From an uncultured Pseudomonadota bacterium (GTDB taxonomy: Bacteria > Pseudomonadota > Alphaproteobacteria > RF32 > CAG-239), in contig CASFUZ010000001.1 in NCBI GenBank assembly GCA_949298065.1, positions 18,793-82,792 of the forward strand: 64,000 nt of DNA, written 5' to 3'. The position numbers and the translations under genes were made by a program. Below the pieces are notes generated by a model, which saw nothing but the letters and a program-made list of their open reading frames with translations, ran no database searches and was not told the DNA's origin. Below, piece after piece: positions 45,142-47,207 of this stretch. Position 1 is the stretch's first letter, and each line of letters starts with the position of its first letter.

Positions 45142-46809
45142 ATGACTGAACTGACAAATCTTGATAACGTATTGTCAAAAAAAGCAAAATTCATTTTTAT
45201 TACGGGTGGCGTTGTTTCATCCTTAGGCAAAGGTTTGGCCTCGGCATCTTTAGCTTCCATTTTGCAGGCGAGGGGGTTTAAGGTGCGTTTGCGCAAGCTT
45301 GATCCTTATTTGAATGTGGACCCCGGAACAATGAGCCCATATCAACATGGTGAGGTTTTTGTAACTGATGACGGAACGGAAGCAGACCTTGACTTAGGCC
45401 ACTATGAGCGTTTTTCGGGCGTTCCGGCCAAACGCACGGATAGTATCACCACCGGAAAGATATACCAGAGAGTTATTGATAAAGAACGCCATGGCGATTA
45501 TCTGGGGGCAACAATTCAGGTCATTCCGCATGTAACCAACGAGATTAAAGACTTTATTTATTCTGATGTAACCGATGAAGACTTTGTCTTGTGCGAAATC
45601 GGCGGAACAGTAGGCGATATTGAAGGTCAGCCTTATTTGGAGGCGATTCGTCAGGTCGCTTATGACTTGGGACGCGACAGAATAATGTTCATTCACGTTA
45701 CCTTGTTGCCATACATTCCGGCGGCAGGAGAGCTCAAAACCAAGCCGACCCAACACTCTGTTAAAAAGTTACAAGAATACGGTATCCAGCCGGATATGCT
45801 GCTTTGCCGTTCTCAAACACCGATTCCGCAAAACGAGAAACGCAAGATTGCTTTGTTCTGCAATATCAGAGAAGACAATGTTATTGCCGCGCTTGATGTT
45901 GATACGATATATCAAGTTCCTGTAGCTTACTCTCATGAAGGTATGGATGCGCAAGTCTGCAAACATTTTGGCTTAGATTGCGGCAAAGAGCCGGATTTAA
46001 GCAAATGGGAAAATATTGTTAACACGATTCGCTGCCCCGAAGGCGAGGTCAAAATTGCTGTTGTCGGTAAATATACACAGCTTCTGGAAGCTTATAAATC
46101 TTTGAACGAAGCTTTGACACATGGCGGCATAGCCAACAAATATAAGGTTCGCATTAAGTGGATTGATTCTGAGTTGCTGGAGCATAATGACCCCGCAACC
46201 TATTTAGCAGAAGTTAATGGCATTTTAGTCCCCGGCGGCTTTGGCGAAAGAGGAACGGAAGGCAAAATGTTGGCCATTAAATATGCGCGTGAAAACAATG
46301 TTCCATTCTTGGGCATTTGTTTTGGTATGCAGTTGGCGGTTATTGAAACTATGCGTAATGTTGCCGGAATTAAGACCGCGGGCACGACCGAGTTTGGCAA
46401 GGCTTGCGAACCGGTGGTAGGTTTGATGACCGAATGGGACAAAGACGGAGCCAAACAAATCCGCCACAAAGACGGAGATTTAGGCGGCACAATGCGTCTG
46501 GGTGCATATGAGTCTGTTTTAAACAAAGATTCTTTAGCGCGCAAAATTTATGGCAAAGATAAAATCTCTGAGCGCCACCGTCATCGTTATGAAGTTAATA
46601 TTAAGTACGAGGATCAATTACGCCAAGCAGGAATGATTATTGCAGGAAAATCGCCTGATGGCAAATTGCCGGAAATTTGTGAGCGTCCGGATCATCCGTG
46701 GTTTATCGGCGTACAGTTCCACCCTGAACTGAAGTCTAAACCTTTTGCGCCGCATCCGCTGTTTGTATCTTTTGTAAAGGCAGCCATTGATAAAAGTCGC
46801 TTGTTATAA
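45142..46809 (+). CDS. pyrG: CTP synthase
   Basis: [16 protein letters not shown], plus the GATase domain GICFGMQ. I placed the start at MTELTN (45142). Confidence 0.9.
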
Positions 46810-47207
46810 TGGAAAATTTGGAAGAACGTTTAAAAAGTTTGCAAAATAATAATTGTGAGGTGTTCGGTTTTACCTTAGATAATGCCGAGCCCTCGCAACA
46901 AGAGCGGTTTATTGCCTTACTTTCTCAAGCAACCAAGCTTGAGGTTTTAGGGCTGACCGCTCTTAAACCATTAACAAGCATTAAAGATGAATGGGAACAA
47001 CAACAAGCAAAAAATTATCGTAATGAAAAGAAGATTGGCGAAGATAGGGCTCGGGTTGCTTATTTTTACGAGAAAATTTTGCCTCAAATGCTCAAAATTT
47101 TGCCCAATCTGCCAAATCTGCAAGAATTATTGCTATGTAACATTACGCTCTCAGAAGAGGACAAAGCAAAGTTACCTCTTGGTCTAAAACTTATTGATAT
47201 TTGTTAA
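46809..47207 (+). CDS. Hypothetical protein with leucine-rich-repeat-like segments
   Basis: LxxLxLxxN-type segments (LEVLGLTALKPL, LPNLPNLQELLLCNITLSEED, LPLGLKLIDIC). Its start overlaps the pyrG stop (TAATG). It sits inside the otherwise conserved pyrG-kdsA junction. Confidence 0.45.
   Translation: MENLEERLKSLQNNNCEVFGFTLDNAEPSQQERFIALLSQATKLEVLGLTALKPLTSIKDEWEQQQAKNYRNEKKIGEDRARVAYFYEKILPQMLKILPNLPNLQELLLCNITLSEEDKAKLPLGLKLIDIC

Follow-up and report, generated by a model that had tools for sequence, protein, structure and literature searches.

Between pyrG, which encodes CTP synthase, and kdsA, which encodes 3-deoxy-8-phosphooctulonate synthase (KDO8P synthase), an uncultured member of the Alphaproteobacteria (GTDB lineage RF32; CAG-239) carries a 132-codon open reading frame (ORF), here given the working name X, that is the subject of this report. 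We analyzed it within a 64,000-nucleotide (nt) stretch of contig CASFUZ010000001.1 (assembly GCA_949298065.1, positions 18,793 to 82,792), referred to below as the window, and coordinates are those of the window unless another locus is named. On the plus strand, the gene order is tpiA (43949-44719), secG (44732-45049), pyrG (45142..46809), X (46809..47207, with its TAA stop codon at 47205-47207), kdsA (47276..48121), recO (48304-49020), and a parC/gyrA-like gene; a ppiD-like gene lies upstream on the opposite strand. The pyrG product matches NCBIfam NF003792 with 829 bits, and the same product of 555 amino acids (aa) is called in all relatives; the likely start of the gene is the ATG at 45142 and not the GTG at 45094 of the ORF listing. 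The 281-aa kdsA product matches NCBIfam NF003543 (424 bits), and recO was assigned with the NCBIfam RecO model. We interpret the 132-aa product of X as a stand-alone mini leucine-rich-repeat (LRR) protein of an unnamed family.

The initial annotation of this locus had reported X as an ATG-started 132-aa ORF overlapping the pyrG stop codon by one base, and this reading of the sequence holds: the overlap TAATG occupies 46807..46811 on the plus strand, with the pyrG TAA at 46807-46809 and the X ATG at 46809-46811. In 10 of the 11 lineage groups that carry X, its start codon follows the pyrG stop at a distance of 0 to 1 nt; L015 alone has a 24-nt spacer. The TAATG junction is found in the window clade, L095, and L097; L001 and L012 have TGATG, so that the overlap was kept through a change of the stop codon from TAA to TGA; and L091-L094 and L096 have TAA-N-ATG. 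No Shine-Dalgarno-like motif (AGGA/GGAG-like) is present in the 25 nt before the X ATG in any lineage, whereas kdsA is preceded by a Shine-Dalgarno-like AAGGA (47264..47268, plus strand) that forms a conserved column block. From the geometry of the junction, we infer that X is translationally coupled to pyrG by termination-reinitiation. Ribosomes ending CTP synthase would most likely reinitiate on X, which lacks a ribosome-binding site of its own, and reinitiation would make the output of X proportional to that of PyrG.

Downstream of X, kdsA follows directly in the window clade, L094, and L097; PagP and then kdsA follow in L015 and L091-L093, and a 210-aa gene of unknown family and then kdsA follow in L095. 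X is tied to pyrG rather than to kdsA and is the last cistron of a tpiA-secG-pyrG unit. The kdsA gene was said in the initial annotation to have a promoter-like element of its own, TTGCTA-17-TATAAC, and this element is present at 47216..47244 on the plus strand (TTGCTA at 47216-47221 and TATAAC at 47239-47244, with a TG before the -10 hexamer, i.e., of the extended -10 type). A consensus promoter scan did not list it, because its -10 hexamer ends in C and lacks the final T. The footprint TTGC-Y-A/N17/TG-n-TA-n-AA plus AAGGA is invariant in nine lineages, whichever gene, if any, lies upstream, and this conservation supports a separate kdsA promoter; the same footprint assigns X to the end of the pyrG unit.

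The length of X is no proof that it is a gene, because spurious antisense ORFs near it reach 269 aa. We therefore rely on conservation. A search of 5.8 billion proteins returned 15 homologues at 78 to 97% identity, none of which bears a name or a Pfam domain, and all homologues with known context lie in the ppiD/tpiA-secG-pyrG-X-kdsA-recO-parC arrangement. Searching 1.84 billion cluster representatives with a profile yielded only about 10 family clusters, and a metagenome scan with a narrow X alignment yielded one locus. Distant members, at 35 to 58% identity and 129 to 160 aa, occupy the same position after pyrG and keep both an open frame and the N terminus MEN/D-x-x-x-RL; alignment gaps among members are whole codons (1 to 7 codons). 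Using the Nei-Gojobori method on close relatives (six genomes), we obtained a dN (nonsynonymous divergence) of 0.095 and a dS (synonymous divergence) of 0.765 for X, i.e., a dN/dS ratio of 0.125, compared with 0.012 to 0.047 for five neighboring genes. X is clearly under purifying selection, and its protein-level change is ~10-fold that of its neighbors. The initial annotation had considered that the ORF might prove not to be conserved at the protein level in close relatives; when this was tested, conservation was found, and on these sequence grounds X is confirmed as a real gene.

The initial annotation had also described X as LRR-like, pointing to the peptides LPNLPNLQELLLCNITLSEED and LPLGLKLIDIC. 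Both peptides are present, and the description is borne out by the fold of a structure model and by profile matches outside the family. The model is confident and compact and contains a single domain, a right-handed beta/alpha solenoid with parallel strands in one sheet and helices on the convex side. Its elements are, in order, an N-terminal helix (residues 4-12), a strand (18-22), a helix (28-38), a strand (46-50), two helices (61-74 and 80-100), a strand (106-110), a short helix (116-120), and a final strand (127-131). By the secondary structure of the model, repeat unit 1 comprises residues 16-43 (46854..46937; C16, strand VFGFT, N25, and helix 28-38), and C16, G20, F21, T22, N25, F34, and L37 in it are invariant among 11 diverse members. 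The strand of unit 2, LEVLGLTAL (residues 44-52; 46938..46964), is placed by the model and by conservation and has E45, T50, and L52 invariant in the same members. Unit 2 is then interrupted by an inserted helical hairpin (residues 53-100; 46965..47108; helices 61-74 and 80-100), recognized from the model, the alignment gaps, and conservation; no other part of the family varies as much in length, yet R71, E73, I76, F86, and L91 in it are invariant. Unit 3 and the terminal strand (residues 101-132, LPNLQELLLCNITLSEEDKAKLPLGLKLIDIC; 47109..47204) resemble NLR-type LRR units, and longer members of the family carry one more complete 28-residue unit at the C terminus. All of these segments are on the plus strand. 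The helices and the C terminus vary freely across the 11 members.

Unit 1 has 28 residues, and unit 3 and the extra unit fit the pattern L-x-x-L-x-L-x-N-x-x-L with 28-residue spacing. X departs from the L-x-x-L-x-L-x-x-N/C-x-L core in that the Asn comes one position early, unit 2 is split by the 48-residue hairpin, and there are only three to four units. The best structural matches of the model are tropomodulin, ribonuclease inhibitor, NLRs, and RanGAP. When the X profile was compared with all PDB sequences, it matched the LRR domain of NLRC4 in several stretches (E values of 2e-5 to 9e-5), with profile positions 87-131 aligned to NLRC4 ...LGNLKNLERLILDDIRMNEEDAKNL... In the 1.84-billion library, the extrafamily matches were only to giant proteins of 1220 to 2039 aa (E values of 1.5e-6 to 9e-5), each of them matched seven times by X residues ~91-122 and rich in Pfam LRR_6/LRR_4/LRR_8; the sequence similarity of X to recognized LRR proteins is confined to its C-terminal unit. 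On fold and profile similarity, X is predicted with high confidence, and with support from the sequence, to belong to the ribonuclease-inhibitor-like class of the LRR superfamily. As modeled, it is a complete LRR domain of 130 to 160 residues of the ribonuclease-inhibitor/NLR/tropomodulin type, with three to four strand/helix units. The family is new, being unnamed and lacking a Pfam or NCBIfam model, and the fold itself is familiar. The search for LRR paralogues proposed in the initial annotation found no paralogue of X and no other ORF with an LRR pattern within the window.

These data bear on the proposal that X is the decaying remainder of an LRR gene that was once larger and possibly derived from a eukaryote, or that the ORF in the pyrG-kdsA spacer is simply spurious. 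X itself has no Pfam or NCBIfam match; its GC content (0.37, with values of 0.34 to 0.39 along the ORF) is below that of pyrG and kdsA (~0.45); one close relative, L014, lacks it; and some metagenomic copies (P0015, P0032, P0035, and P0037) are truncated or frameshifted. One of these, P0015 (L010 881..2770, ERZ16268063 scaffold_94250), has 101 aa and diverges after residue 71; pyrG on that contig is split into two ORFs (253 and 282 aa), so that an assembly or sequencing error would explain it as well as decay would. A decaying or spurious ORF should show a dN/dS ratio near 1 and no protein conservation, whereas X is under purifying selection and its frame is intact over a range of 35 to 98% identity. 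Moreover, the nearest larger LRR proteins match over ~30 residues only (E values of 1e-6 to 1e-4), and the family members start in common (MEN/D..ERL) at the pyrG stop, reach full length at 129 to 160 aa, and are represented by one compact and confident model. For these reasons, X is, according to the model, a complete stand-alone domain. We reject its derivation as a fragment of a larger eukaryote-like gene, which the initial annotation had offered as an alternative, and regard decay or a spurious origin as very improbable overall.

We then placed X in its host group. One genome per GTDB species was scanned with PyrG, which gave 80 loci at 79 to 99% PyrG identity. All 80 come from metagenome-assembled genomes (MAGs) of uncultured Alphaproteobacteria. 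Samples of human gut, rumen, caecum, and other animal gut are the source of many of them, and their labels include CAG:495, 'Azospirillum sp.', 'Acetobacter sp. 46_36', RUG, and RGIG. The pyrG-kdsA junction, which the initial annotation had called highly conserved in alphaproteobacteria, is a variable slot in this group and not a fixed one. In 27 of the 80 loci, kdsA lies within ~3 kb downstream of pyrG, at distances of 88 to 3025 nt; the two genes are directly adjacent (88 to 186 nt) in only 7 of these, X separates them in 4, and other genes do so in the rest. The commonest other insert encodes PagP, a lipid-A palmitoyltransferase (Pfam PF07017, E value of 4e-61), and several inserts belong to unknown families. 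When the slot after pyrG was surveyed in L011-L090 (window equivalent, 46810-47275), PagP-like genes were seen in 13 species, a ~240-aa family with an N-terminal membrane helix was seen in 17 species, two families of 250 to 370 aa and of unknown kind were seen that are at times tandemly duplicated (L025 and L059), and unrelated genes were seen elsewhere.

On a neighbor-joining tree of PyrG plus KdsA, built without bootstrap, the X-bearing lineages form one clade. L014 (PyrG, 95% identity; KdsA, 96% identity) lacks X and is nested inside this clade, which argues for a single gain of X and a later loss. No trace of X was detected in the 164-nt spacer of L014 (CALXTV010000014.1, L014 5609..5772), suggesting a clean deletion; the 3' 91 nt of this spacer is the kdsA promoter region and is shared at ~90% with L095. 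One candidate remnant, the match TTGCCAAATTCTGCCAAAC, was equaled by 0 to 15 of 500 shuffles, and we rejected it, since the segment is that same promoter region, also found in L095 beside X. We also considered a foreign origin on the basis of base composition. This was unsupported: most lineages have an X whose GC content follows that of the lineage genome (0.37 in 0.45, 0.46 in 0.51, and 0.55 in 0.53), usually a few points under that of pyrG and kdsA, which points to long vertical residence. X is only 35 to 58% identical between lineages in which PyrG is 92 to 95%, KdsA is 84 to 98%, and RecO is 76 to 81% identical.

The comparisons establish a real gene with an LRR fold that occupies a fixed site after pyrG and arose once in a single clade. 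For its role, we favor a cytoplasmic protein-binding adaptor or inhibitor that is made by translational coupling to CTP synthase, and we put the probability of this reading at roughly 55%. The acidic N terminus and the lack of a signal sequence suggest that X stays in the cytoplasm, and by analogy with other short LRR domains, it would most likely bind a protein through its parallel-strand sheet. In an otherwise fast-diverging protein, the polar strand residues T22, E45, and T50 and the hairpin residues R71 and E73 are invariant, and the usual LRR register would put the three strand residues on the binding side. A strand surface conserved in so rapidly evolving a protein suggests one conserved intrabacterial partner rather than a variable, diversifying foreign target.

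Several observations weigh against the adaptor or inhibitor reading or parts of it. Pfam, its LRR models included, and NCBIfam give no match to X or to any of 21 family members, even at E values up to 10, and a first, shallower model (pLDDT [predicted local distance difference test] score of 75) did not retrieve LRR folds in a fold search. L014 has lost X and retains an otherwise intact pyrG, which indicates that X is dispensable, and the C terminus of PyrG is the same in L014 as in the lineages that kept X. The divergence of X (35 to 43% identity where PyrG is 92 to 93% identical) fits a conflict-type role as well as it does a housekeeping partner. With regard to coupling, a Shine-Dalgarno motif was present at 15 of 44 window genes; because the first possible codon was taken as the start of each gene, this survey is too noisy for the missing motif of X to be called unusual. 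Finally, neither a terminator-like site nor a hairpin was found after X, so that some read-through into kdsA is possible.

The initial annotation had linked X to host interaction, noting that LRR proteins of intracellular bacteria often act in this way. X would then be an exported, eukaryote-like LRR protein that is delivered or exposed to host cells and binds a host protein. In favor of this, the LRR classes nearest to its fold (tropomodulin, ribonuclease inhibitor, NLRs, and RanGAP) are mainly eukaryotic, the related MAGs are host associated and come from gut and rumen, and no gene of the locus evolves faster than X; the window also contains a gene for a giant protein that has a signal peptide and weakly matches ankyrin. 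The N terminus of X, however, is acidic and polar, has no hydrophobic stretch, and shows no Sec, Tat, or lipoprotein signal (type III, IV, or VI signals are not recognizable by this check). No secretion-system genes lie at the X locus; instead, X is part of a housekeeping operon, and its start depends on the pyrG stop. The polar strand residues are invariant and not diversifying, under an overall dN/dS ratio of 0.125. The named relatives are gut, rumen, and caecum MAGs; nothing indicates an intracellular bacterium, and that framing was not sustained. We found no specific support for a host-interaction role, which we therefore consider unlikely.

If X has a conserved partner inside the cell, obligatory coupling to pyrG makes PyrG the first candidate. 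As a mini-LRR subunit made by reinitiation at one copy per few PyrG chains, X might bind PyrG and tune its oligomerization, filament formation, or activity, or it might channel CTP to the neighboring Kdo/lipopolysaccharide pathway; we consider such a dedicated CTP synthase partner doubtful, and naming PyrG as the partner is speculative. A literature search on pyrG together with LRR found nothing relevant. Were this proposal true, X would be the first regulator of the LRR type for a bacterial enzyme of nucleotide biosynthesis, and it would exemplify the capture of an essential enzyme by a young, clade-specific gene.

The broader reading of X as a coupled adaptor or inhibitor, if true, would show how a young lineage-specific gene is retained: positioned at the stop of a gene that is essential and well expressed, it gains expression without signals of its own. 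X uses a versatile binding fold near its minimum size, at three to four repeats, and adds an unannotated family, from poorly known gut Alphaproteobacteria, to the small set of bacterial ribonuclease-inhibitor-type LRR proteins. Its practical value is limited until the partner is found; the fold is ordinary, the family is tiny, and at least one lineage does without the gene. A small orphan LRR protein would come as no surprise to specialists. The neat oddity, and a testable one, is its invariable coupling to CTP synthase.

Other features of the window were noted in passing. The kdsA-recO spacer is taken up by a 42-codon ORF on the plus strand (48174..48302, MKDFLRQRGTWLILLCALLAVLSAWEFDKNPPNWVYEVMTRE) whose product has one hydrophobic helix. 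Close relatives and L014 have conserved it, L091-L093 carry a diverged form of 48 to 49 aa, and gene callers list it in L097; it probably encodes a genuine small membrane protein. This small ORF ends one base before recO. Both in the window and in every relative examined, recO apparently starts with TTG (LQFKDEGY...), directly after the stop of the small ORF, which makes for a further tightly packed junction. On the minus strand, a giant 3194-aa ORF (11010..20594) begins with a clear N-terminal signal peptide, MKIKFLFRKAITLLSLAAFCFAYSPASLAAG, followed by a weak match to ankyrin repeats at residues 43-81 (E value of 0.007); it also has a hydrophobic segment and then a run of Gly residues, and Pfam gives no further domain. 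Judged by its sequence, it is an uncharacterized giant surface or secreted protein. Downstream of parC on the plus strand, a 679-aa ORF (51503..53542) has no Pfam match and a 1331-aa ORF (53654..57649) has subthreshold matches only (ATG17-like and DUF948; coiled-coil-like); the two encode large proteins that lack annotation. No Rfam family reached its gathering score anywhere in the window (1..64000).

Comparison with known LRR systems brings in one more possibility, that X is an orphan immunity protein, i.e., a small cytoplasmic LRR inhibitor of toxins injected by rival gut bacteria that is kept constitutive by coupling to an essential gene. X is small, apparently cytoplasmic, fast evolving, and confined to a single clade, whose gut community is dense; ribonuclease inhibitor is among its best structural matches; and a class of LRR immunity proteins has been described (PMC3482391). 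Like X, the Imm-LRR proteins of that class (Zhang et al. 2012, PMC3482391) are small bacterial cytoplasmic LRR proteins that evolve fast and block by binding another protein. Their genes adjoin type V secretion system toxins or sit in polyimmunity loci (PMC3482391), whereas X, compared by genomic context, sits in a housekeeping operon with no toxin nearby. In all lineages, its neighbors are pyrG upstream and kdsA, PagP, or the 210-aa gene downstream, and no toxin gene, polyimmunity cluster, or mobile-element signature lies beside it in any of them. PADLOC and PHROGs gave only noise-level matches, and vertical inheritance has kept X at a single fixed site. An immunity function thus appears improbable to us.

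Secreted bacterial LRR effectors and adhesins (YopM, IpaH/SspH, internalins, and Leptospira LIC proteins) have repeats of 20 to 22 residues that lack long convex helices; they bear signals for secretion or anchoring, and most have many repeats. X differs from them in its long-repeat class with convex helices, in having no export signal, and in its size and genomic setting. NLRC4, NLRP3, NLRP14, and ribonuclease inhibitor are 10- to 16-repeat horseshoes in large multidomain eukaryotic proteins, whereas X is a single mini-domain without NACHT or any other partner domain; its likeness to their LRRs covers one unit and gives no sign of recent transfer. The C-terminal LRR domain of tropomodulin and leiomodin (PDB 1io0, 1pgv, and 4rwt) is structurally like X, at an identity of only 16% and with no detectable sequence kinship. 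Tropomodulin caps the actin pointed end in eukaryotes with five repeats and a C-terminal helix, whereas X is a bacterial protein that combines three to four units with a 48-residue hairpin.

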